A stretch of 64,000 bases of DNA, from positions 305 through 64,304 of the forward strand of contig JAAYDW010000051.1 of the NCBI GenBank assembly GCA_012729055.1, written 5' to 3'. The notes under the pieces are model-generated. The model searched no databases. It was given only the letters and a program-made list of their open reading frames with translations, and had not been told where the DNA came from. The DNA comes from Deltaproteobacteria bacterium. GTDB taxonomy: Bacteria > Desulfobacterota > Syntrophia > Syntrophales > Smithellaceae. Made by a program: the position numbers and the translations under genes. Below, piece after piece: positions 4,366-55,443 of the stretch. Position 1 is the stretch's first letter, and the number at the start of each line of letters is the position of its first letter.

Positions 4366-4773
4366 ATGAAGACTTTCAGGAAACGGACAGGAATAGCCGG
4401 GATGGCGCTCGTCTTAACGGTTTCATTCTTCATTTTTCTCTGCGGGGAGGGCACGGCTTTCAACTTTCCGGCAGCCGGCCGGCGCCGCGGCGATGCATCC
4501 ATTGCCCGGGAAAATTCAAAAGCGGCTATCTCCAAAGCGCCGGAATTCGACAATCCCTATATCGAACTGGACATCATCGACTTTGCCGACGCCGATGGAC
4601 ACCGGATCGACCCGGTTTCGCACGACTGTCTGATGAAACGCGCCACGGAACTTCCCGGCGCTTTCAGCGAAAAATACGACAGCTATTCCAAGATTCCGCT
4701 AAACGCCGCCAATCCCAATCTGCCGCCGGGCATACCGGGCCGGACACGGCCTGGCCCTGTGGCGGATTGCTAA
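4366..4773 (+). CDS. Hypothetical small membrane-anchored/secreted protein
   Basis: N-terminal hydrophobic segment IAGMALVLTVSFFIFLCGEG. Codon usage looks like the neighbours. No recognisable family. Start is uncertain (a TTG at 4267 is the alternative). The 3' end overlaps the convergent activator gene by 4 nt. Confidence 0.5.
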   Translation: MKTFRKRTGIAGMALVLTVSFFIFLCGEGTAFNFPAAGRRRGDASIARENSKAAISKAPEFDNPYIELDIIDFADADGHRIDPVSHDCLMKRATELPGAFSEKYDSYSKIPLNAANPNLPPGIPGRTRPGPVADC

Positions 4774-6929
4774 TCGCCGAACGGTTTTCCGGCCAAGCCG
4801 TGCTTTTTCAATTTTCGAAAAAGCGTCGCCCTGGAGATATTGAGTTTGCGGGCAATCTGGACTTTGCTGAATTTCAAATCCAGCATCCGGCCGATGAGAT
4901 TCTTTTCCGTTTCATCGGGCGCCACCAGATCAAAGGAAGTGGATTTTGACCGGTCGATGCCGGCAATATCCGGCGGGACCAAATCAACCGTCAGGCGGTC
5001 CGAAACAGCGTAATTCACCATGCGTTCCACGACATTCTGCAGCTCCCGCACGTTTCCCGGCCAGGAATAACGCAGAAACATCTCCATCACCGTATCATCC
5101 ACGCCGGTGATGGTCTTGCCCAGGGCGGATGCGCATTTCTTAACAAACGCGTCCGCCAGCAGGGGAATGTCGTCTTTCCTCTCGCGCAGCGCCGGCAAAT
5201 GGATGTTGAAAACATTCAGACGGTAATAGAGGTCCTTGCGGAAACTTCCCCGCGCCACTTCCTCGATCAGGCTTTTGTTTGTTGCGCAGACAATCCGCAC
5301 ATCGACCGTCCGGATCTGGTTGGAGCCGATGCGCAGCACGCACTTGTCTTCAATCACGCGCAACAGCACCGCCTGAATTTCCAGGGGAATCTCGGCGATT
5401 TCGTCCAGAAGAATCGTGCCTCCGTCGGCCATTTCAAATTTTCCCTGGCTGCCGCCGCGACGCGACCCCGTGAACGCGCCTTCGCCGTAGCCGAACAGTT
5501 CGCTCGCCATCAGATCGCGGGGAATCGCCGCGCAGTTGATGGCCACATACGGGCCGTCCCGGCGCGGGCTGGCGTTGTGAATGGCTTGCGCCAGAATGTC
5601 TTTGCCCGTGCCGCTTTCACCCAGCAAAAGCACGTTGGACACGCTTTTCGAAATCACATGGGCTTCGTCGATAACCCGCCTAAACCGCTCGTTCCGGCCG
5701 TGGATATCGGAAAACTTCAGGTTGGCCTTGGCGCCCGCAAATTTATTCACCAGGGATTTGATTCTCTGGATTTCCGAAAAAATAAGAATCTTTCCGATGG
5801 CCGCTCCGCCGGACGAACAAATGCTGTTGCAGGTCAGCGTAAAGTCGCCGGGTCCTCTGGAGAAATAAAGGCGAACCTCTCTGTCGCTTTGCGGATCCCG
5901 ACGGTTGATCAAATTCCAGAAACGCCGGTTGGCTTCTTCGGGAAAGACGGTTTCCAGAGGCTCGCCCGTGACGGCGCTGTTTTCCAGTCCGAAGAGCTTT
6001 TGCGCGCGCTCGTTGACGGCGGTGATTTTCCCTTCGGTATTGACGGCGATCAGCGCTTCGGGAATGGAGGCAATAATCGCTTTTTGCAGGCTGTAGGCAA
6101 CGTCCGTTTCGGAAAAGGCGCTCTGCAGGCGGTCCAGCGCTTTGCGGAGTCTCAGCTCGTTTTCAATGGCGTGTACGGCGGCGATGGCCATGCCCAGCGT
6201 GTGCGGGTGCGCGCCGAATAAAAGAGAGATAATGCTGATGCCGCCGATGACCTCGCCTTCCGGATCGATAATCGGCGCGCTCGACGCGGCCAGAAAATGG
6301 AAGATCTGCTTGTAATGCTGGGCGCCGATGATCTGCAGCGGCTTTTTCTGCTTCAGCAGAGTCCCGATGGTGTTGGTGCCGCAGCATTCCTCCGTCCAGA
6401 GCGCGCCGGGGCGCCAGTTGTACTGGCGGTGGAGTTCCACGTACTTTTCATCCTGCATGACTTTCAGAATGTAGCCGTTTTTGTCGGAGAGCGACACGGT
6501 GAAACTGCTGGTCGTCATGGATTTGTAGAGCCTGTCCAGGAAAGGCTGACTGATATCGATGAGCAGCCGGTTGTTTTGAAACAGCTCCTCAAGGGCCCCG
6601 CCCGTCAGGATCTCATTGTTCAGTGCTCCGCAGGGATTGATTCCGTATTCCCGGCTGCGCTGCCAGCTTTTAAAAATCAGCGGCGGAACAACGGACGTGT
6701 CGATCTTTTCCGCGCCGCTGACAAACGCATTCCACTCGCCAAGCGTGAGCTCCTTGAATGCCAGCCACGCCCGCAGGACCTCCTGGGGAGTAACGCCCTT
6801 TTCCAGATCGACTTCGCCGTTGAAAATTTTGTAAAAGTCCAGCGGGGAATCGCTTCCCTGATGGCCCGGACGCGCGTCGTCTGCTTTGGACTTTTCTTTG
6901 GTGATGGTGTCGGTATTCAGATTCTCCAT
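4770..6929 (-). CDS. Sigma-54-dependent transcriptional activator, AcoR-like (GAF + PAS + AAA+ + Fis-type HTH)
   Basis: Walker A GESGTGKD, GAFTGS loop (GEGAFTGSRRGG), C-terminal HTH (KVQIARKLNISRATLFRKLKKHGL). AcoR-type N-terminus (FKSWQRSREYGINP) plus a GAF-like block. PAS segment (IPEALIAVNTEGKITAVNERAQKLF). Confidence 0.92.
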   Translation of the reverse strand: MENLNTDTITKEKSKADDARPGHQGSDSPLDFYKIFNGEVDLEKGVTPQEVLRAWLAFKELTLGEWNAFVSGAEKIDTSVVPPLIFKSWQRSREYGINPCGALNNEILTGGALEELFQNNRLLIDISQPFLDRLYKSMTTSSFTVSLSDKNGYILKVMQDEKYVELHRQYNWRPGALWTEECCGTNTIGTLLKQKKPLQIIGAQHYKQIFHFLAASSAPIIDPEGEVIGGISIISLLFGAHPHTLGMAIAAVHAIENELRLRKALDRLQSAFSETDVAYSLQKAIIASIPEALIAVNTEGKITAVNERAQKLFGLENSAVTGEPLETVFPEEANRRFWNLINRRDPQSDREVRLYFSRGPGDFTLTCNSICSSGGAAIGKILIFSEIQRIKSLVNKFAGAKANLKFSDIHGRNERFRRVIDEAHVISKSVSNVLLLGESGTGKDILAQAIHNASPRRDGPYVAINCAAIPRDLMASELFGYGEGAFTGSRRGGSQGKFEMADGGTILLDEIAEIPLEIQAVLLRVIEDKCVLRIGSNQIRTVDVRIVCATNKSLIEEVARGSFRKDLYYRLNVFNIHLPALRERKDDIPLLADAFVKKCASALGKTITGVDDTVMEMFLRYSWPGNVRELQNVVERMVNYAVSDRLTVDLVPPDIAGIDRSKSTSFDLVAPDETEKNLIGRMLDLKFSKVQIARKLNISRATLFRKLKKHGLAGKPFGD

Positions 6930-7113: not shown

Positions 7114-7129
7114 TGGCATGCGTCCTGCT
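7114..7129 (+). promoter_or_regulatory. Candidate sigma-54 (-24/-12) promoter for the polyesterase-foldase pair
   Basis: TGGCAT-GCGTC-CTGCT compared with consensus TGGCAC-N5-TTGCW. The invariant GG and GC have correct spacing. A divergent sigma-54 activator gene is adjacent. A sigma-70-like TTACAT-N17-TATAAT (7129-7157) overlaps and is an alternative. Confidence 0.55.
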
Positions 7130-7352: not shown

Positions 7353-7406
7353 AGGCGGTAGAAAGCAACTTTTACAGAACTATTAAAAAAAGGGGAGGGG
7401 TTCTTT

Positions 7407-8249
7407 ATGAAAGTTTGGAAAGTATTGTTGGCTTCAATCTTTACGCTGCTGTTAACCGTCAGTCTGGCACATGCGGTGCAGATCGGTCCTGCGCCGACAT
7501 CCACTCTGCTCAACGGCGACGGGCCTTTTGCCGTATCGTCGAGCAGCGTCTCCAGTTGGGTGACGGGCTTCGGCGGGGGGACGATCTACTATCCGACCAC
7601 GTCCGGGCAGTATGCGGCCGTTGCGGTGTGCCCGGGCTTTACCGGAACAAGCTCTTCGATTTCCTGGTTTGCCCGAAGGCTCGCCACACACGGATTTGTG
7701 ACGATTGCCATGAACACGAACACCATCTATGATTATCCGTCGAGCCGCGCCACGCAGCTCGCCGCGGCGCTGCGCTACCTGCTCAACTCTTCGAGCAGCA
7801 CCATCCGCGCCCGCATCCGCACCGCCGACCGCGCCGTGGCGGGGCATTCGATGGGCGGCGGCGGCACGCTCATCGCGTCTGCGAATGATTCGACGCTGCG
7901 CGCCGGCATTCCGCTCACGCCGTGGAACACCTACACCAGTTTCTCCTCGGTGCGCGTGCCCCAGATGATTTTCGGCGCCGACGGAGATACCATTGCGCCT
8001 TATGCGTCGCATGCGCGCCCCTTCTACAACAGCCTCAGCTATCCGGAAAAAGCGTACGCCCTGCTCAACGGCGCAACGCACTTTACGCCGAACAGCACGG
8101 ATCAGCGCATCGGCCGCTACGGCGTGGCTTTCGCCAAGCGTTTCGTTGACGGCGACACCCGCTACACCCCGTTCCTGTGCGGCGCCGAGCACACGGCTTA
8201 CGCAACCAGCTTGCGGTTCGACACATATCTGAGCACCTGTCCGTATTAA
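7407..8249 (+). CDS. Secreted cutinase/PETase-family polyesterase (dienelactone-hydrolase-like alpha/beta hydrolase)
   Basis: RBS GGGGAGGGG. Signal peptide ..TVSLAHA/VQ. By-eye alignment to TfCut2/LCC/IsPETase: GTIYYPT, CPGFTG, ISWFARRLATHGFV, GHSMGGGGTL, IPLTPW, GADGDTIAP, PFYNSL, GATHFTPN, KRFVDGDTRYTPFLC, STCPY. Predicted triad Ser148/Asp194/His225. Cys258-Cys278 pair. Confidence 0.9.
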   Translation: MKVWKVLLASIFTLLLTVSLAHAVQIGPAPTSTLLNGDGPFAVSSSSVSSWVTGFGGGTIYYPTTSGQYAAVAVCPGFTGTSSSISWFARRLATHGFVTIAMNTNTIYDYPSSRATQLAAALRYLLNSSSSTIRARIRTADRAVAGHSMGGGGTLIASANDSTLRAGIPLTPWNTYTSFSSVRVPQMIFGADGDTIAPYASHARPFYNSLSYPEKAYALLNGATHFTPNSTDQRIGRYGVAFAKRFVDGDTRYTPFLCGAEHTAYATSLRFDTYLSTCPY

Positions 8250-8275
8250 AAGGCGGAAAACGGGAAACACGAAAC

Positions 8276-8300
8276 GCGCCGGATCGCCCCGATCCGGCGC
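8276..8300 (+). terminator. Intercistronic hairpin between polyesterase and foldase (possible attenuating terminator)
   Basis: GCGCCGGATCG-ccc-CGATCCGGCGC followed by GTTCTTGCTG. Lies 27 nt after the stop and about 58 nt before the foldase ATG. Confidence 0.45.
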
Positions 8301-8358
8301 GTTCTTGCTGCAAACATTCAACCATCAGGACGATTGACAAAGGAGAAATAGTCTTCCC

Positions 8359-9108
8359 ATGCTCATCGAAAAAGCAAGCTTCATTCAGAAAAAATGGTTA
8401 TGGCTTATTTTGGTCCTGCTCATTGCCGCAAGCGCGGCAGGCTATTTTGCGCGCGATGAAGAACCCCCGACCCTGGCGCAATACAGAATCGTCGCCAGGC
8501 ATGTTCTTTCCACGCACAAAAATATTCCTCCGGCGGAAAACAGGATCGCCGCATGCAGCTCCGCCGACTGCAAGGATGTTGCGGCCGTCTTGCAACCGGA
8601 GGCCAAAGAAAAAGCGGATGAAAAAGAAGAAATCTATACTCTGTTTCAGGCCGATGCAGACGGCAATCTTGTGCTCAATGAAAAAACACGCCTCAATATC
8701 GAAAAATTATACGCGCTCAACACGCCGGAGGAACTGGCGGAAAAAATGCAGAAGCTGTCAAAGGCGCTTCCCGAGCCGGCGCATCGGCAGGTTGTCAATC
8801 TGGTGAATTACTTTGATACTTATACGCGAAATATAAAATTGAGCTATCCGCCGGATGAGCAGCCGGCAACAGTCGAAGCGGTTCTCGATCGGTTCAGGGG
8901 GATGCATGATTTGCGCCTGTCGCATTTCGGCGCCGACGTGGCATCCGCTTTTTACGCCGAAGAAGAAAAGCAGTCTCTCCAACTGCTGTATCTGATGGCG
9001 ATAGAAAAGGACGAGGGATTATCGCTGGATCAGAAGGTCGAACGGGCGCAGCAGCTTCTGCAAAATAATCCGGAACTGGCCGCCGCCTACGACCCCGACC
9101 GCAAATAA
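8359..9108 (+). CDS. lif: Lipase-specific foldase (Lif / lipase chaperone family), membrane-anchored
   Basis: N-terminal TM anchor (WLWLILVLLIAASAAGYF). By-eye match to Pseudomonas LipH-type foldases: ADADGNLVLNEKTR, LPEPAHRQVVNLVNYFDTY, HDLRLSHFGADVASAFYAEEE, LSLDQKVERAQQLL. Confidence 0.85.
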   Translation: MLIEKASFIQKKWLWLILVLLIAASAAGYFARDEEPPTLAQYRIVARHVLSTHKNIPPAENRIAACSSADCKDVAAVLQPEAKEKADEKEEIYTLFQADADGNLVLNEKTRLNIEKLYALNTPEELAEKMQKLSKALPEPAHRQVVNLVNYFDTYTRNIKLSYPPDEQPATVEAVLDRFRGMHDLRLSHFGADVASAFYAEEEKQSLQLLYLMAIEKDEGLSLDQKVERAQQLLQNNPELAAAYDPDRK

Positions 9109-9118
9109 AGAAAAAAGA

Positions 9119-9151
9119 GGGAACGGTCGTGACCGTTCCCTACACCTTTTT
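9119..9151 (+). terminator. Probable rho-independent terminator after the foldase gene
   Basis: GGGAACGG-tcgtga-CCGTTCCC stem, then TACACCTTTTTG. Confidence 0.5.
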
Positions 9152-11953: not shown

Positions 11954-12225
11954 GCGCGCTTCTTACTTTATTTTTTAAGAAAAAACCACAACGGCCTGCA
12001 TCATCCGGCGCCCGGAACGGCCGGGTCGACCGGGAGGCGGCTCATCCGATGCGGGAAGGCCGTGAGGATCAGGACGTCTCGACCTGCCGTGGCTTCGGCG
12101 CTTTCCAATGAGAGAAAGAGGAAGGCGTCGGAAGTCATCATCGCCAAAGGATGAGCATTCCGGTGTTGAAAAACCGTCCTTGGCTTTGCTCGGGTTCGCG
12201 CTCCACAAAACGGAATTCGGTCGTT

Positions 12226-42520: not shown

Positions 42521-43411
42521 TTACGATGCTTCTTCCGACAGCGCCTCAAAACCGGCGACAATGTCCAGAAGTTCCTCGGTGATCGTCATCTGGCGGGTGC
42601 GGTGGAACTGCACGTGCAGGTCCTGCAACTGCTCTTCAATGTTTTTTTCGGCGTTCTGCATGGACGCCAGCCGGCTCGCGTTCTCGCTGGCCAGCGACTC
42701 GGCAAAGGCCCGGTAGAGCGACACGAACAGATACTCGCGGATAAGCGACGAAAAGATCTTGTCGCTGTCCATCCGGAAGATCGGCAGCGACTTGGAGTCC
42801 CATTTTTTCTTCGCGATCTGCCTGAGCCAGTCCATATCGACGGGCAGGAGCTGAAGCAGGCGGGGGTGGTACGTCGCTCCGGTCAGATACTCATTGTAAA
42901 ACAGGACAAAGTGATCGATGTTGCCGCGGAAATGCCATTCGTCGATGATCATGATGATCTCCTGAACCAGCGGCGTAATGCCCGCCGTGGAGCCGGGCGT
43001 GCCGAGGAGTTCCTCCACCGGCTGTCCGGCATCCTCCAGGTAATCCGCCACGCGCGCCCCGATGCTCAGGACCTTGCGATTTTCTTTTTTCACCCCGGCG
43101 CTCTTGATATACTCCAGGGTGAACGTGGAGATCTGCTCGTTGAGTTGCCCGCACAGGCCCTGGTCGGACCCGAAAACGATGACCCCCAGGCGCTTCATCG
43201 TTGAATGCTTCCGGCGCATCGTCGCGCCCATCCGCTCCTTGAGCACGATCTGCAGGCCCATCTCGACGGCGCGGTTGTAGTCGCGCAGCGATTCCACAGC
43301 CCGTTGATACTGGCGGATGCTCACCGCCGCCAGCGCCTTCATCGTCTTGACGACCGACAGGAGATCGCCCGCGCTTTTCATTCTTCTTTTCAGCGACTCA
43401 GTTGTTTGCAT
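42521..43411 (-). CDS. atpG: N-type ATPase gamma subunit
   Basis: [37 protein letters not shown]-terminal ITEELLDIV. Overlaps the atpA stop. Confidence 0.9.
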
Positions 43412-44966
43412 TGGCTTCCTCGACCTCTTCAAGCGGTGCAATGGCCGGTTTGATTTTGCTCAGAATGCTGTCGCGGTCCGTGATGTCGATTTTCTTGCCG
43501 TCCTCGATGCGCGCGCACAGTTCCGGCAACTGCTCGTTGACGACGTCCAGAAGCCGCCCTTCCGCCTGGCGGATCTTTTCAATCGGAACCAGGTCCAGGG
43601 CGCCGCCCGTGATCGACAACAGCGACGCGATCTGTTCGGAGGCGCGCAGAGGCTTGTACTGGCCCTGCTTGAGAATTTCACGGACGCGCCAGCCGCGCTC
43701 GAGGGTCCGGCGCGTGGCGTCGTCGAGCCTTGTCCCGAAGCGGGAAAAGGATTCCAGCTCCTCGAACTGCGTGTAGGACAGGCGCAAATCCCCCGCGACG
43801 GACCGGTAGGCGGGCAGCTGCGTTTTGCCGCCGACGCGCGAAACGGATTTGCCGACATCCACCGCCGGCAGAATGCCCTTGTTGAAGAGCACCGGCGAAA
43901 GATAAATCTGACCGTCCGTAATGGAAATCAGGTTCGTCGGAATGTAGGACGACATGTCCTGCGCCTCCGTTTCGACGACCGGCAAAGACGTCAGCGATCC
44001 TCCGCCCAGTTCGGGGCGCATGTGCGTGGAGCGCTCCAAAAGACGGGAGTGGATGTAAAAGATGTCGCCGGGGAAGGCTTCGCGTCCGGGCGGCCGCCGC
44101 AAAAGCAGCGAAACTTCGCGGTAGGCCCGCGCATGCGAGGTCAGATCGTCGTACACGATCAGCACGTCGCGGCCCTGCTCGACAAAATACTCCGCCATGC
44201 TCGTGGCCGCGTAAGGCGCAATAAACTGAAGCCCCGGCGTGTCTTCGCCGGTGGCTACGACCACGATGCAGGATCCCATGACGCCGTGGTCGCGCAGTTC
44301 GGCGATGACTTTGGCCACGTCCGCGCTCTTCTTGCCGACGGCGCAGTAAATGGAGAGGATGCCCGTCTCTTTCTGATTGATGATCGTATCGACGGCGATG
44401 GCGGTCTTGCCGGTCTGCCGGTCGCCCAGGATGAGCTCGCGCTGGCCGCGTCCGATGGGAATCAGCGCGTCGATCACCTTGACGCCGGTTTGCAGCGGAA
44501 CCGTCACCGGCGCGCGGTCCATGACGGCGGGCGCCGGACGCTCCACCGGCAGCCGCAGGACCGTGCTGACCTCGCCCAAGCCGTCGAGCGGACGTCCCAG
44601 CGGATCGACGATCCGTCCCAGAAGGCCGTCGCCCACGGGCACGTCCAGAACGCGCTTGGTGCGCTGCACCTCGGAACCCACCTGCAGATTTTCGCTGGGG
44701 TCCAGGAGGATCACGCCGATTTCCTTGGGGTCGATGTTGAACACCAGCCCCATGTAGTTGCCCGAAAACCGCACCAGTTCCTCTGCGCGGATGTGCGGCA
44801 GACCGCTGACCCGGGCGATATCGCGGCCGACGAACTGGACGGTGCCGATTTCATATTGTCTCAGTTCAGGATTCTGTTCGTCCAAAACCTTTTCCATGGT
44901 GTCAAACGTGTCGTCCAGAAAGGTTTTCAGCTCCTGACTTTCCAACGGATTTGTTTCCTGATTCAT
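43398..44966 (-). CDS. atpA: N-type ATPase alpha subunit
   Basis: Walker [36 protein letters not shown]. Confidence 0.95.
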
Positions 44967-45015
44967 GTGCTGCCTCCTGTGGTAGGGAACAGTCGCGACT
45001 GTTCCCTACATGACG

Positions 45016-45786
45016 TTATGCCGCATGCGCTTCTTTCTGGAGCGTTTCCGTCAGGCTCTCCACCAGCGTTTCCAGATACTCGTTGAGGCTCCAGGCGATT
45101 TTATGGCCGTTGACCCGGAGTTCAATGCCGGATACCACGTCCGGTTCATGCAGATAGCGGATGGTAAAGCCGTTGGTGATCTGTTTTTTCAAAACCTCCT
45201 CGATCTGCGACTGTCTTGGCGCTGAAATGCCGAAGGCGCTCTGCACGGTCACCCGATTGCCGCCGCCGGTGATCGCCTGGCGGATCTGTTTGCTTTTCTC
45301 CGCATCGAGCGCCTGCAGCCGCCGGAGAAATTCCTCGATGATCCGGTCCTCCAGTTCCTCATCGGCCAGGTCGGACAGGGCCTTGCGCGCCGTCGCGTAA
45401 AGCTGTTTGGCGGCCCGCTGGCGCAGATCGTAGAAGAAGGCGCCCTGCTCGCGGAGCAGCATCTCCTGCCACCGGGTTTTGACCGTGTCGACTTCTTCGC
45501 GCACTTTTTCCATCAGCTCCTTGCGCTTGGCGTCCGCCGCCATCGTCGCCTCGTTGAGCATCACTTCCTTCTTCTCGTTGAGCATCTGATTGCGCTGCTC
45601 GTAAAGCTGGGCTTCCTCCCGCGCCTTGGCCTGCAGCGCGTCCGCATCCTCGAAACGCCGAGCGATCTTGGCTTCCCGGTCGTCCATGGCCTTGATGATC
45701 CGCCCGTACAAAAACCGCTTCAGCAGATACATCAGCAGGAGGAAATTAAAGATCTGCGCCAAAAATACAAACCAGTCGATATGCAT
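45016..45786 (-). CDS. atpF: N-type ATPase b subunit (long form with delta-like C-terminal part)
   Basis: N-terminal TM (FVFLAQIFNFLLLMYLL) plus a long charged helix. The C-terminus resembles an OSCP/delta C-terminal domain. No separate delta gene is present in the operon. Confidence 0.85.
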   Translation of the reverse strand: MHIDWFVFLAQIFNFLLLMYLLKRFLYGRIIKAMDDREAKIARRFEDADALQAKAREEAQLYEQRNQMLNEKKEVMLNEATMAADAKRKELMEKVREEVDTVKTRWQEMLLREQGAFFYDLRQRAAKQLYATARKALSDLADEELEDRIIEEFLRRLQALDAEKSKQIRQAITGGGNRVTVQSAFGISAPRQSQIEEVLKKQITNGFTIRYLHEPDVVSGIELRVNGHKIAWSLNEYLETLVESLTETLQKEAHAA

Positions 45787-52781: not shown

Positions 52782-53128
52782 ATGGCCATCCTCGCGTCGG
52801 TAGTTTCATCCGCATGGTGTCCGGCAGCCGTCCTGTGCGCCGCCATTTTCTCATCGCTTCATCCATAAAGGAATTTTACATCGCAAGCAATCTGTTTTTA
52901 TGAACAGGGAAAAACCGACCGCCGGGAAAGCGCCGGGACGAAAAATTTAATTGTTTGCAAATACAATTATTTAGAAAATATTTTCAGGCGTCATCAGCGC
53001 GGCGCAGAAATGTGCATTCGAACCGTCATCGACGCCACAACCAACGACGCCGCCGGTCGTCTCTCCCCATTCCGGAGTCTTTGGATTCCGGAACGGGGAG
53101 GATAATTTTCACCGACCGCCGGAGGCGT

Positions 53129-54553
53129 TCATGCCGCGCGCCAGACTTTGCCGCGGAACTGCCGTTCGGCCCATTCGTAGGTCGTCTCTACGGCATAAAT
53201 GGCGTCCTGGATTTTGGCGTACACAGGGAAGCCGGCCTTGCGCAGCGCGGCAAACGTGGAAATTCGGACGCGCTCGGATTCCAGATCGTCTTCCACGAAG
53301 CTCGCCAGGACGGCGATCACGGGTTTTCCGATCTGCCGGGCCATTTCGCCGATCGTATCGGCGCTGTTCTTGACGTTGAGGAAGAGTTCCGCGCGCATGA
53401 TGTATTCGACCGAAAAGTAGGGAACGATGACATCGATGGATTCGTCTTCGTCCATGGCCTTCATCGTATGCAACATGACGTTGAGGTCGAAGCCGAAGGC
53501 GCCCAGATCGACCGGATTAATCGTCGAGGTGTTGACGCCTCTGATTTTTTCGCCGATTTTCCGCTGCGCGGCCTCGCCCAAGTCAGGAAGCATCAACCCC
53601 GCCTGGACGGCCAGATCGCTGAAGAGCACCGAAATGCCGCCGCCGGCGCCGAGAAACCCCACGCGCCTTCCCCGCGGAGTCTTTTCCGCCGCGCCCATCA
53701 TCACCAGATGCATCAGCTGATCGAAGTCGTCCACCAGAAGACCGCCGTGCTGCCGGACGGCCGCCGCCCAGAGGGTATAGTTGCCGGCCATGGCTCCCGT
53801 GTGGCTGGCCGCGGCCTTCGATCCCGCTTCCGTTTTTCCGCCCTTGAGAAGAATGACGGGCTTTCTGGCCGTCGTCTTTTTCAGCGTCCGGAGAAAGGCG
53901 TCCGCGTCCTTGATGTCCTCGACGTAGCAGGCGATGAGCTTCACCTGCTCGTCGTCGGCCAGGTAGTCGAGGTAATCCTCGATCCGCAGGTCGATCTGAT
54001 TGCCGTAGGAGACGACTTTATTGATCGCGATTTTCCGCGTCGCGGCGAGTCCCAGGAAATTGGCCGTCATGCCGCCCGACTGTCCCAGAAAAGCGACGTT
54101 TCCCGTTTCGAGGGGCCCGGGGGACAGCGCGAAAGACACCTTGGATTCGGACGAGTGAATGCCGATGCAGTTGGGCCCCACGATCCGCAGCTCCCCCTTC
54201 CGGGCTTCCCGCAGCAACTCTTCTTCGAGCAGCCGGTTGCCGGTTTCTCCGAAGCCCGACGTAAAAAAATGGATAAACTTGATTCCCCGGCGGACCGCCG
54301 CCCGGACGATGTCCACGGACTGCTCGACCGGCGCGGCGACAATGGCAAAATCCACCGGTTCGGGCAGATCGCCGATGGACGGATAAACCTTGCAGCCGTC
54401 GATCTCCCCGCCTTTCGGATTGACCGGATAAATCTTCCCCGTATAACCGTTTGCCCGGATAATCTGGAAATAGGGCATTTTTCCGCCGCCCAGGTTGCCG
54501 GACGCGCCGACAACGGCTACGCTTTTCGGATAAAACAACGCATCGAGATTCAT
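53129..54553 (-). CDS. ADP-forming acyl-CoA synthetase, alpha-type subunit (CoA-binding + CoA-ligase domains)
   Basis: FYPKSVAVVGAS, KIYPVNPKGGEIDG, phosphohistidine loop AASHTGAMAG. Confidence 0.85.
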   Translation of the reverse strand: MNLDALFYPKSVAVVGASGNLGGGKMPYFQIIRANGYTGKIYPVNPKGGEIDGCKVYPSIGDLPEPVDFAIVAAPVEQSVDIVRAAVRRGIKFIHFFTSGFGETGNRLLEEELLREARKGELRIVGPNCIGIHSSESKVSFALSPGPLETGNVAFLGQSGGMTANFLGLAATRKIAINKVVSYGNQIDLRIEDYLDYLADDEQVKLIACYVEDIKDADAFLRTLKKTTARKPVILLKGGKTEAGSKAAASHTGAMAGNYTLWAAAVRQHGGLLVDDFDQLMHLVMMGAAEKTPRGRRVGFLGAGGGISVLFSDLAVQAGLMLPDLGEAAQRKIGEKIRGVNTSTINPVDLGAFGFDLNVMLHTMKAMDEDESIDVIVPYFSVEYIMRAELFLNVKNSADTIGEMARQIGKPVIAVLASFVEDDLESERVRISTFAALRKAGFPVYAKIQDAIYAVETTYEWAERQFRGKVWRAA

Positions 54554-54660
54554 CGCATTCCTCCCTTGATTCCGTCTCAGATTTCAACGCGCCGCCCGGG
54601 ACGGGCGGCGTTTGTGAACTATACAGCGTCTTTCCGGGGATGCAAGGCGAAATTTCGCGG

Positions 54661-55443
54661 CTACGGTTTGGCCTGGCCCGCGCCGGTGATGAAGATCTTC
54701 CAGAGCGTTTTAAAGGTCAGGTAGTCATGTCCGCCTTCGATCACCACCACGCGTTCGGGCGGCAGCAGTTCGGCCAGGAGCTGATGCCCCCGGGAATAGG
54801 GATCGCCGGCGCCGTACCCCAGATAAACGATTTTTTCGGGATGATCGGCCACAGACACTTTCAACCAGCGCCACAGCATCTGCTGCCAGTCCACGCCGTA
54901 GACATACTCGCCCGGCTCCCACGCGCGCGGGCCGCCCGCAGCTTCGATTTGCGCGAGAAAAAGCGGCGCGCCCAGAAACGGCGCAATGAGGTAAACGCGC
55001 GCGATGTCTTCGGGATGATCCATGTAATACAACAACGACCCCAGTCCGCCCATCGAGAAGCCGACGAGCCAGATTTCCGCATACCCTTTGGCGCGGGCCG
55101 GATCGATCACGTCTTTTTTCAGCCGGTCGATCAGGCGGCGGTCGCCGTAGTAACCGATATGGGCGTTGGGCGCGACGATGTCGCAGGACAGGCCGCAGGC
55201 CCACACGTCCGCCACAAGCCCTTCTTCCTCAAAGCTGCGATGGCTGCCGCCGATGCCGCGCAGAAAGACAATCAGCCGCGACGAGGACGGCGCGTCGGGA
55301 TTTTCGTAGGAAAGCACGTCCATGGGCCGATTGGCAAAGAGGGCGCAGCCTGACAGCAACACGCCCAGAACGACCGCCAAAAGCGCCGCCGCCGCGCGGT
55401 TTTTCCCTCGCCTTCCCCTGCCTGCGCGGCCGTCTGCGATCAC
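54661..55443 (-). CDS. Alpha/beta-hydrolase lipoprotein (esterase-like)
   Basis: Lipobox LLSGC. Nucleophile elbow GFSMGG. C-terminal GGHD. Confidence 0.75.
   Translation of the reverse strand: MIADGRAGRGRRGKNRAAAALLAVVLGVLLSGCALFANRPMDVLSYENPDAPSSSRLIVFLRGIGGSHRSFEEEGLVADVWACGLSCDIVAPNAHIGYYGDRRLIDRLKKDVIDPARAKGYAEIWLVGFSMGGLGSLLYYMDHPEDIARVYLIAPFLGAPLFLAQIEAAGGPRAWEPGEYVYGVDWQQMLWRWLKVSVADHPEKIVYLGYGAGDPYSRGHQLLAELLPPERVVVIEGGHDYLTFKTLWKIFITGAGQAKP

Follow-up and report, generated by a model that had tools for sequence, protein, structure and literature searches.

A PETase/cutinase-family esterase gene and a neighboring short Lif-type foldase homolog in an anaerobic Smithellaceae syntroph

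In the contig of the Smithellaceae genome analyzed here, of which a stretch of 64,000 nucleotides (hereafter the window) was examined, a gene for a PETase/cutinase-family serine hydrolase is followed on the same strand by a gene for a short homolog of the lipase-specific foldases (Lifs). A GC-rich hairpin lies between the two genes, a second hairpin stands behind them, and a gene for a sigma-54 enhancer-binding protein diverges from them on the other side. The coordinates of these features are collected in Table 1.

Table 1. Genes and signals of the esterase–foldase locus, with positions counted along the window.
Feature	Positions	Strand	Details
Sigma-54 enhancer-binding protein	4770–6929	−	719 aa, divergent; MimR_N, PAS, Sigma54_activat AAA+, HTH
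Sigma-54-type −24/−12 promoter-like element	7114–7129	+	TGGCATGCGTCCTGCT; about 290 nt 5' of the hydrolase start codon
RBS of the hydrolase gene	7392–7400	+	GGGGAGGGG
PETase/cutinase-family serine hydrolase (lipase family III type)	7407–8249	+	280 aa ORF
Intercistronic GC-rich hairpin	8274–8302	+	Perfect 13-bp stem, 3-nt loop, weak T-rich tail TCTTGCT
RBS of the foldase gene	8340–8345	+	AAGGAG
Short Lif-type lipase-specific foldase homolog	8359–9108	+	249 aa ORF; Pfam, PDB profile and AF2/Foldseek
Terminator-like hairpin with T-run	9118–9141	+	10 bp, bidirectional, closes the two-gene unit; terminator scan

The product of the upstream gene matches the Pfam PETase family PF12740 with 324.3 bits (residues 21–278 against profile positions 4–262 of 263), and 179 relatives were found for it in the PDB, the best of which are Thermobifida-type cutinases and PET hydrolases (E~1e-87). 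These matches bear out the original prediction that the upstream enzyme belongs to the PETase/cutinase family and is not a family I lipase; the NCBIfam equivalog cutoff for BHET hydrolases is missed by it (295 vs. 520 bits). The protein begins with a Sec signal peptide (residues 1–23, MKVWKVLLASIFTLLLTVSLAHA|VQ, with cleavage after AHA). Its nucleophile elbow reads GHSMGG, as opposed to the GHSHGG of family I.1/I.2 true lipases, so that the presumed client is not of the family I.1/I.2 type; the elbow carries S148, and D194 and H225 complete the catalytic triad. In the alignment of hydrolase homologs (A1), these three residues are invariant, and C258 and C278, the pair of the C-terminal disulfide, are nearly so. 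An antisense ORF of 289 aa (7452–8321) and other overlapping ORFs were dismissed as artefacts arising from a GC content of 59%, since it is the plus-strand ORF that has the 324-bit family match.

The downstream protein had been proposed to be a membrane-anchored Lif homolog, and Pfam, profile-to-PDB sequence matches and the predicted fold all agree with this assignment. An HMM search against the lipase-chaperone family, suggested as a check, gave a match to PF03280 (Lipase_chap) of 41.2 bits, above the curated cutoff of 25.7, over residues 155–239 (profile positions 8–92 of 192), and all 34 downstream partners of PETase homologs match the same family at E≤0.01. The NCBIfam equivalog cutoff for "lipase secretion chaperone" is missed (52.9 vs. 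285 bits; model positions 73–221 of 336). A profile of the foldase family aligned to LipB of A. baumannii (9g8u_B; E=1.6e-9, chain residues 24–183 of 302) and to MD1 of LipH (5ovm/6gsf; E~1e-4), and stretches of the window's protein align to LipH "FSVDASGNLLIT" and "LQEPARGQALALMQQYIDY". AF2 modeling, based on a narrower alignment (A3), resulted in pLDDT >90 over residues 90–235, and the top four Foldseek matches of the model in the PDB are solved Lifs (9g8u_B, 2es4_E, 2es4_D and 6gsf; probability 0.97–1.0), the alignment covering about 163 of the 270–285 residues in 9g8u_B/2es4. A DsbA likeness of residues 68–136 was dropped, the matches being weak and not significant (E≥0.14).

The foldase homolog is anchored in the membrane by the hydrophobic segment WLWLILVLLIAASAAGYF, which follows KK (about residues 13–30; AF2 helix 3–31). 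The anchor is succeeded by a linker that includes C66-x4-C71 and is modeled with low confidence (residues 57–88), and then by a helical periplasmic domain (residues about 90–245) that corresponds to Lif MD1 plus about three more helices; the anchor-then-linker layout is common to all 34 aligned foldase homologs. The MD1-type mini-domain consists of three helices (108–119, 123–136 and 139–162; Foldseek probability 0.97 against 6gsf). Conserved columns of the family are F96, G102, L104, L137, P138, A141, L148, Y155, R186, F190 and G191, and E115 is invariant. Three sequence blocks had been put forward as Lif hallmarks, and all of them are present, ADADGNLVLN at residues 98–107, LPEPAHRQVVNLVNYFDTY at 137–155 and RLSHFGADVASAFYAEEE at 186–203, on conserved family columns and Lif-aligned stretches; however, the YFDTY of the second block does not correspond to the FDY motif of Lifs, as it aligns to MD1 helix 3 (LipH "QQYIDY").

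Canonical Lifs carry the motif Rx1x2FDY(F/C)L(S/T)A in MD1 helix 1, and their full scaffold of 11 helices, with an extended helical domain and a C-terminal MD2, embraces the lipase (2ES4). The equivalent of the motif in the window's protein is R111–L120 (RLNIEKLYAL), which is degenerate: the Arg is kept, the Asp is replaced by Glu (E115), and where LipH has its functionally critical Tyr, a Lys stands here, at a position that varies across the family. With LipH of P. aeruginosa, LipB of B. glumae (2ES4) and LipB of A. baumannii (9G8U), i.e., with the proteins of PF03280, the foldase homolog shows homology both in sequence and in predicted fold, extending through MD1 into the first part of the helical domain; it also shares with them an N-terminal inner-membrane anchor with a flexible linker, a gene beside a presumed client hydrolase, and an occurrence in diderm bacteria only. 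It differs from them in being about 100–120 residues shorter: the protein ends at residue 249, directly followed in the DNA by the terminator-like hairpin, and it lacks MD2 as well as the C-terminal stretch of the extended helical domain. The presumed client differs as well, being a lid-less PF12740 cutinase/PETase-type enzyme and not a GHSHGG true lipase. Proteins of this architecture (about 230–250 aa) form 586 clusters, and the best 150 representatives of the family are all ≤301 aa. The foldase belongs to a distinct short subfamily that has neither the C-terminal half of canonical Lifs nor the FDY motif.

To analyze the genomic context of the pair, 79 species-representative loci with a PETase homolog were surveyed, of which 31 are diderm and 48 belong to Actinomycetota. 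A Lif-like gene is located immediately downstream of the PETase homolog in 28 of the 31 diderm loci, including those of Smithella, Steroidobacter, Roseateles/Mitsuaria, Aquabacterium, Hydrogenophaga and others, and in none of the 48 Actinomycetota loci. The Lif-associated enzymes therefore make up a recognizable subset of the hydrolase family, comprising nearly all diderm members and no actinobacterial ones, as had been suggested. A short Lif of about 210–260 aa beside a PF12740 hydrolase was found in the window, in these 28 diderm loci, and at loci L009, L010, L012 and L092. Among close relatives, the pair is retained in four unrelated flanking contexts, which, together with its frequency in diderm loci, supports the view that the esterase and foldase genes are a conserved pair. 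Two consecutive PETase/Lif pairs occur in one Sphaerotilaceae genome, and tandem PETases with a Lif in divergent orientation were detected in Caldimonas. Distances between the hydrolases are correlated with those between the foldases (Mantel r=0.55, 0 of 2000 permutations). No Lif was found within 3.5 kb at the IsPETase-like Rhizobacter locus L050 or at the Smithella paralog L018.

Several known systems resemble the locus. In Roseateles, Mitsuaria and Rubrivivax, the PETase gene is followed by a Lif-like gene of roughly 230 aa and then by an AraC gene, and the hydrolases are 60–65% identical to the window's enzyme; in these Roseateles-type Betaproteobacteria, no hairpin comes between the abutting genes, and the regulator encoded nearby is of the AraC type and not a sigma-54 activator. 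Polyester-degrading esterases of Roseateles depolymerans TB-87 (est-H/est-L/est-Ch) and one of the same family from Acidovorax delafieldii (PbsA) were reportedly cloned along with a gene for a putative chaperone. Reviews citing the TB-87 and A. delafieldii enzymes mention no chaperone, and a keyword search for literature combining lipase-specific foldases or chaperones with PETase, polyester, cutinase, Roseateles depolymerans or Est-H/Est-L esterases returned no match. The closest solved structures are those of actinobacterial cutinases and PET hydrolases of PF12740 (Thermobifida TfCut2/Cut190-type, LCC), which have about 50–55% identity, the same triad and the same C-terminal disulfide; in contrast to the window's enzyme, they have no adjacent Lif at any of the Actinomycetota loci sampled. 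Actinobacterial cutinases are secreted enzymes of monoderms, made without a periplasmic folding step.

The nearest precedent is the IsPETase system of Piscinibacter (Ideonella) sakaiensis, in which, according to a preprint that cites an earlier report, a lipase-chaperone gene adjoins IsPETase, enhances the function of PETase and, on PET, is conditionally essential (bioRxiv 10.1101/2025.11.11.687616). The combination of a PETase-family hydrolase with a neighboring lipase chaperone is shared with the window, and the IsPETase-clade hydrolases of a related Sphaerotilaceae genome adjoin short Lifs of the same family as the window's. The genes of that genome are divergent, whereas those of the window are co-oriented with a hairpin between them; the window's host, moreover, is a strict anaerobe of another phylum, and its hydrolase, of a Thermobifida-like type with a single disulfide, has about 50% identity to the sampled enzymes of the IsPETase clade (L050). 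The original prediction of an undescribed foldase–client combination, which was to fall if the pairing proved common and already described for this hydrolase family, is consequently not sustained: the neighborhood survey reveals the pairing in most diderm loci, and it has been reported for IsPETase in the preprint. The pairing is widespread, and the locus does not represent a new principle.

Upstream of the hydrolase gene, the best match to GG-N10-GC is TGGCATGCGTCCTGCT, which is identical in L001 and reads TGGCACAGGTTCTGCT in L013, the loci closest to the window. The Pfam domains of the divergent enhancer-binding protein were taken from its syntenic ortholog in L001–L003. Judging from sequence, this activator is a candidate regulator of the esterase–foldase operon, which appears to be sigma-54 controlled. 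The distance between the promoter-like element and the start codon is unusually long.

The hairpin between the two genes, earlier noted at 8276–8300, is real and conserved with covariation. Folding of the region gave an MFE z of −3.05, and of 16 intergenic regions that were folded, 14 have an equivalent hairpin directly 3' of the stop codon of the hydrolase gene, with a consensus of 14 pairs and compensatory changes at 6 of them. It was also considered as a REP-like repeat, which was rejected: the hairpin is unique in the window, its exact matches being only its own two arms and the others lying at chance level (35 found vs. 32 expected). We regard it as probably a leaky terminator or a 3'-end stabilizer. 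The alternative that it acts as an intrinsic terminator at which all transcription of a monocistronic esterase gene ends, with the foldase gene transcribed separately and no tuning of the ratio within one transcript, seems doubtful to us. A proper T-run does follow the hairpin in the relatives L013, L019, L023 and L025, and in some lineages the foldase gene is divergent and so needs its own transcription; yet in the window the tail is weak, the site was not called by the terminator scan, and no promoter-like site was found in the 56 nt between the hairpin and the start codon of the foldase gene. In addition, the genes abut or overlap without a hairpin in many proteobacterial loci (e.g., L009 and L010), which shows that they are co-transcribed in those lineages.

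Taken with a leaky or stabilizing hairpin, we consider it probable that the locus is a two-gene operon of an anaerobic Smithellaceae (Syntrophales) syntroph, encoding a secreted PETase/cutinase-family esterase and a dedicated periplasmic short Lif-type protein that would bind it and act as its steric foldase. Transcription would start at the sigma-54 promoter upon activation by the divergent enhancer-binding protein, and the hairpin, conserved as it is, may terminate or stabilize part of the transcripts, which would leave more esterase message than foldase message. As read from the two translations, the esterase would be exported by Sec and its signal peptide removed, and the N-terminal helix of the foldase would anchor it in the inner membrane, the helical domain lying in the periplasm. 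There, the foldase would bind the newly exported esterase via the MD1-like three-helix module and about three further helices, help it to reach or keep a native, secretion-competent state, and then let it go on to be exported through the outer membrane. This foldase step draws on the homology to LipH/LipB, on the strict gene linkage and on the published report of a chaperone adjacent to IsPETase (bioRxiv 10.1101/2025.11.11.687616). Since the C-terminal half of canonical Lifs, including MD2, is missing, the foldase probably clamps its smaller lid-less client and does not fully embrace it.

The Lif-like protein might instead be dedicated to the esterase without being a folding catalyst, i.e., it might serve as a periplasmic holding, inhibitory or targeting factor. 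Such a factor, which we consider unlikely, could protect the membrane lipids of the cell itself from the esterase or hand the enzyme to the secretion machinery. The FDY motif and MD2 of true steric foldases are missing, and tight gene linkage would suit a dedicated partner in any role. At L092 and L040, the hydrolases next to a Lif are close relatives of the crystallized RgCutII (8air), the PBS(A) depolymerase 8c65, IsPETase and the Caldimonas-type PET hydrolase 8ian. To our knowledge, these crystallized relatives were produced heterologously without a foldase; a folding barrier may therefore not exist, or, as we prefer, any foldase dependence is probably quantitative rather than absolute. Against a non-catalytic role, the Lif homology includes MD1, the module with which LipH binds its lipase, and the chaperone adjacent to IsPETase is described in the preprint as improving PETase function, which fits activation better than inhibition. 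We therefore favor a dedicated foldase. It is highly improbable that the two genes are neighbors by chance and that the client of the foldase is a classical family I lipase whose gene lies in another part of the genome. Family I.1/I.2 lipases are the textbook clients of Lifs, and only a 64-kb window of the genome is visible; but the pair persists in four flanking contexts and in diderm loci of different classes (28/31), it has been duplicated as a pair, its two proteins co-diverge, and the best 150 family members are all of the short architecture.

More tentatively, and with less confidence than in the operon itself, we hypothesize that short Lifs are a distinct, uncharacterized branch of steric chaperones for PETase/cutinase-family hydrolases across diderm phyla, strict anaerobes included, that works without MD2 and the FDY motif. 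If so, the binding geometry would differ from the "headphone" embrace of LipH/LipB, and the yields of Gram-negative polyesterases could be raised quite generally by co-expressing the cognate short Lif, a means that has been overlooked. Gram-negative PETase-family enzymes are intensively engineered for plastic recycling and, as far as we know, are normally expressed without any partner; the linkage of nearly all those sampled to a short Lif-type helper suggests a maturation step in vivo that expression and discovery pipelines have overlooked. The locus extends the PETase–Lif pairing to uncultured anaerobic syntrophs (Smithellaceae). The window's enzyme more plausibly acts on natural esters and polyesters, from which it would release fatty acids or alcohols that are then oxidized syntrophically.

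Elsewhere in the window, no type II secretion genes were found among 20 large ORFs, and Rfam and tRNA scans gave no match. Two ORFs of 589 aa each (43317–45086 and 52955–54724) were considered as a related pair and rejected, as they are equal in length but share no repeat. The genes neighboring the locus encode an acyl-CoA dehydrogenase, a carboxyltransferase and the sigma-54 activator.

The locus is an example, from a lineage of anaerobic syntrophs, of a widespread module that combines a PETase-family hydrolase with a short lipase-specific foldase (Lif) and that earlier literature already mentions. The original prediction is partly supported: its gene pair, foldase homology and intergenic hairpin are upheld, and its claim of novelty fails.

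Features of the esterase–foldase locus (window positions)
Feature	Position	Strand	Details
Sigma-54 enhancer-binding protein (MimR_N, PAS, AAA+)	4770-6929	-	divergent to operon
-24/-12 element TGGCATGCGTCCTGCT (TGGCAT-N5-CTGCT)	7114-7129	+	~290 nt 5' of esterase gene
ORF1, PETase/cutinase-family hydrolase	7407-8249	+	280 aa; PF12740
Intergenic hairpin	8274-8302	+	perfect 13-bp stem; folding
ORF2, short Lif-type foldase homologue	8359-9108	+	249 aa; PF03280

As anticipated, the upstream gene encodes a cutinase/PETase-family enzyme: ORF1 covers the full PF12740 profile at 324 bits, its nearest solved structures are Thermobifida-type cutinases and PET hydrolases (E~1e-87), and the alignment shows conservation of the catalytic residues S148 (within GHSMGG), D194 and H225 and of the C-terminal cysteine pair C258/C278. 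Judged by its sequence, ORF1 belongs unambiguously to the PET-hydrolase-like/cutinase family; against the NCBIfam BHET-hydrolase equivalog model it scores 295 bits, below the cutoff of 520. A Sec signal peptide can be read from the N-terminal sequence, MKVWKVLLASIFTLLLTVSLAHA/VQ. Roseateles and Rubrivivax supply the nearest named relatives of ORF1 outside the Smithellaceae/Syntrophaceae clade, at 62-64% identity. Cleavage of esters or natural polyesters, freeing fatty acids or alcohols, is a more plausible natural role than plastic degradation.

The predicted kinship of ORF2 with lipase chaperones was borne out by an HMM search, in which it exceeded the curated Pfam Lipase_chap threshold (41.2 vs 25.7 bits), and the three sequence blocks quoted in its favour are all present and coincide with conserved blocks of the family. 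The Pfam match is confined to aa 155-239 (profile positions 8-92 of 192), and the alignment to the NCBIfam 'lipase secretion chaperone' model spans aa 96-239 (positions 73-221 of 336) and scores far under that model's cutoff. PF03280 is matched by all 34 aligned ORF2-type partners, and a 34-homologue profile of the family detects Acinetobacter baumannii LipB (9g8u_B; E=1.6e-9) and the MD1 domain of LipH (5ovm, 6gsf; E~1e-4). The AF2 model of ORF2 (mean pLDDT 79.7; >90 at aa 90-235) has as its four best PDB matches 9g8u_B, 2es4_E, 2es4_D and 6gsf (probability 0.97-1.0), all of them solved Lif structures, and every next-ranked match has a probability of at most 0.09. By profile and model, ORF2 is a Lif of short form.

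Alignments of ORF2 to Lif end after ~160 residues, and periplasmic Lif chains comprise 270-300; the helical scaffold lacks its C-terminal portion, including the second mini-domain. A truncation artefact is ruled out and the shortness is genuine, because a terminator-like hairpin lies directly 3' of the ORF2 stop codon and, among the 586 representative clusters recovered in an exhaustive family HMM search (193 with E<=1e-10), none of the best 150 exceeds 301 aa and most measure 210-260 aa. The Lif hallmark motif is Rx1x2FDY(F/C)L(S/T)A; its aligned equivalent in ORF2 is R111-L-N-I-E115-K-L-Y-A-L, which retains the Arg and has, in place of the Asp, a Glu that is invariant in the family; the residue at the Tyr position varies. 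The ORF2 string 'YFDTY' was considered as the FDY motif and rejected, as it aligns with MD1 helix 3. The family profile block 'LhaLR..hFG' gives weak secondary matches at residues 212-230 and 264-276 of 9g8u_B, a hint, at non-significant scores, that the long Lif scaffold may contain repeated copies of a unit found once in the short form. The foldase linker, otherwise unstructured (model pLDDT <50), carries a cysteine pair, C66-x4-C71 (8554-8571; aa 66-71), that is kept in the closest Smithellaceae homologues (the window, L001, L005, L013, L015 and L016), is missing from proteobacterial homologues in the family alignment, and is a possible disulfide or metal site.

Close ORF2 homologues all come from Smithellaceae, Syntrophaceae or 'Deltaproteobacteria' MAGs and always lie 3' of a PETase gene, across four unrelated flanking contexts; the Roseateles and Rubrivivax loci have the order PETase, ~230-aa Lif-like gene, AraC regulator. 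To survey co-occurrence, the foldase profile was run on every flanking ORF of 79 loci, one genome per GTDB species. A same-strand Lif-like ORF immediately follows the PETase gene in 28 of the 31 diderm loci, including Smithella, Sinobacteraceae, several Steroidobacter, Mitsuaria, Aquabacterium, Hydrogenophaga and Burkholderiales MAGs, whereas none was detected on the flanking ORFs of the 48 Actinomycetota loci. In the NJ tree, the Lif-negative hydrolases are the actinobacterial clade, L050 and L018. Distances among the hydrolases correlate with those among the foldases (Mantel r=0.55, 0/2000 permutations), and the foldase is the faster-evolving partner (mean pairwise identity 0.45, against 0.61 for the hydrolase). 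Given this clean split, the tree and the co-divergence, the originally suggested foldase-dependent subclass of polyesterases corresponds to a real genomic pattern and coincides almost entirely with the Gram-negative members of the PETase/cutinase family.

Two loci are exceptions to the pairing and lack a Lif within 3.5 kb: L050, from a Rhizobacter sp. MAG with an IsPETase-like enzyme, and L018, a second PETase paralogue in a Smithella MAG. Both might use a foldase from another locus. The next gene at L018 encodes another alpha/beta hydrolase, PAF-AH/chlorophyllase-like. Copy-number variants of the module occur at three loci: a Smithella MAG (L017, 1060-5110) carries PETase paralogues in a tandem array of three, one of them degenerate, with a single Lif after the array; Caldimonas L040 (2423-5324) has two tandem PETases and one divergently oriented Lif (57.9 bits in Pfam); and a complete Sphaerotilaceae genome (L092, 1976-5741) has two consecutive divergent PETase/Lif pairs and a hydrolase whose nearest relatives are RgCutII, PBS(A) depolymerase and IsPETase.

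Ahmad et al. (2019) reportedly described a putative chaperone gene, est-Ch, beside est-H and est-L in Roseateles depolymerans TB-87, and Uchida et al. (2002) are said to have found a similar one beside pbsA in Acidovorax delafieldii. Public annotations name several ORF2-type proteins 'lipase chaperone', 'lipase secretion chaperone' or 'LimK'. The one direct statement found in the open literature searched comes from a preprint, which reports that a lipase-chaperone gene adjacent to IsPETase can 'improve PETase function' and is conditionally essential on PET (bioRxiv 10.1101/2025.11.11.687616). With the pairing this common and already described, the proposal of an undescribed foldase–client combination does not stand.

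The analysis shows, for this pair, homology and fold, features of topology, linkage of the two genes and their co-divergence, and the best-supported reading of ORF2 is a dedicated Lif-type periplasmic helper of the esterase; we infer binding between the two and foldase activity. The esterase would be exported via Sec, captured by the MD1-like module of the membrane-anchored short Lif, and released for secretion once matured. Close relatives of the Lif-adjacent hydrolases at L092 and L040 include the crystallised enzymes IsPETase, RgCutII, PBS(A) depolymerase and the Caldimonas-type PET hydrolase, all of which, to our knowledge, have been produced heterologously without a foldase. This speaks against a strict foldase requirement; the short Lif probably raises esterase yield, stability or secretion without being indispensable, consistent with the preprint's wording. 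What remains of interest is the distinct architecture of the short Lif, together with its practical use in expressing Gram-negative polyesterases.

The intergenic hairpin had been proposed to set the esterase:foldase ratio. When 16 intergenic regions were folded, 14 had an equivalent GC-rich hairpin directly 3' of the hydrolase stop codon; these differ in stem sequence, often carry a T-run, and show compensatory double changes at 6 of 14 consensus pairs in a seven-sequence alignment. The hairpin is unique in the window and is not a dispersed repeat. Our preferred reading is a leaky terminator or a 3'-stabilising element, which would give more hydrolase than foldase message, because the tail in the window is only weakly T-rich, a terminator scan of the window did not call the hairpin, and no promoter-like site was found in the 56 nt between it and the foldase start codon. 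In many Proteobacteria the two genes abut.

The divergent sigma-54 activator and the -24/-12 element, conserved among the loci closest to the window, suggest that a small-molecule signal governs esterase production, presumably through sigma-54 control of the operon. Close to the pair lie genes for an acyl-CoA dehydrogenase, a carboxyltransferase and an O-methyltransferase, and the remainder of the window holds ordinary chromosomal genes such as those for aconitase, isocitrate dehydrogenase, an RND efflux pump and sensor kinases; no T2SS genes were found among 20 large ORFs of the 64-kb window. The host lineage, Smithellaceae (Syntrophales, Thermodesulfobacteriota), comprises, as far as is known, strictly anaerobic syntrophs. 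Two ORFs of the same length, 589 aa (43317-45086 and 52955-54724), proved unrelated; they share no DNA repeat, neither has a Pfam hit, and both probably run antisense to GC-rich coding sequence. The syntenic relatives L001-L003 carry a 381-aa eCIS_core (PF13699) gene between the O-methyltransferase and LuxR/GerE-type regulator genes (L001 8580-10216), whereas the corresponding interval here (11954-12225) is ~270 bp without that ORF; a ~1.4-kb indel thus separates the window from these close relatives.
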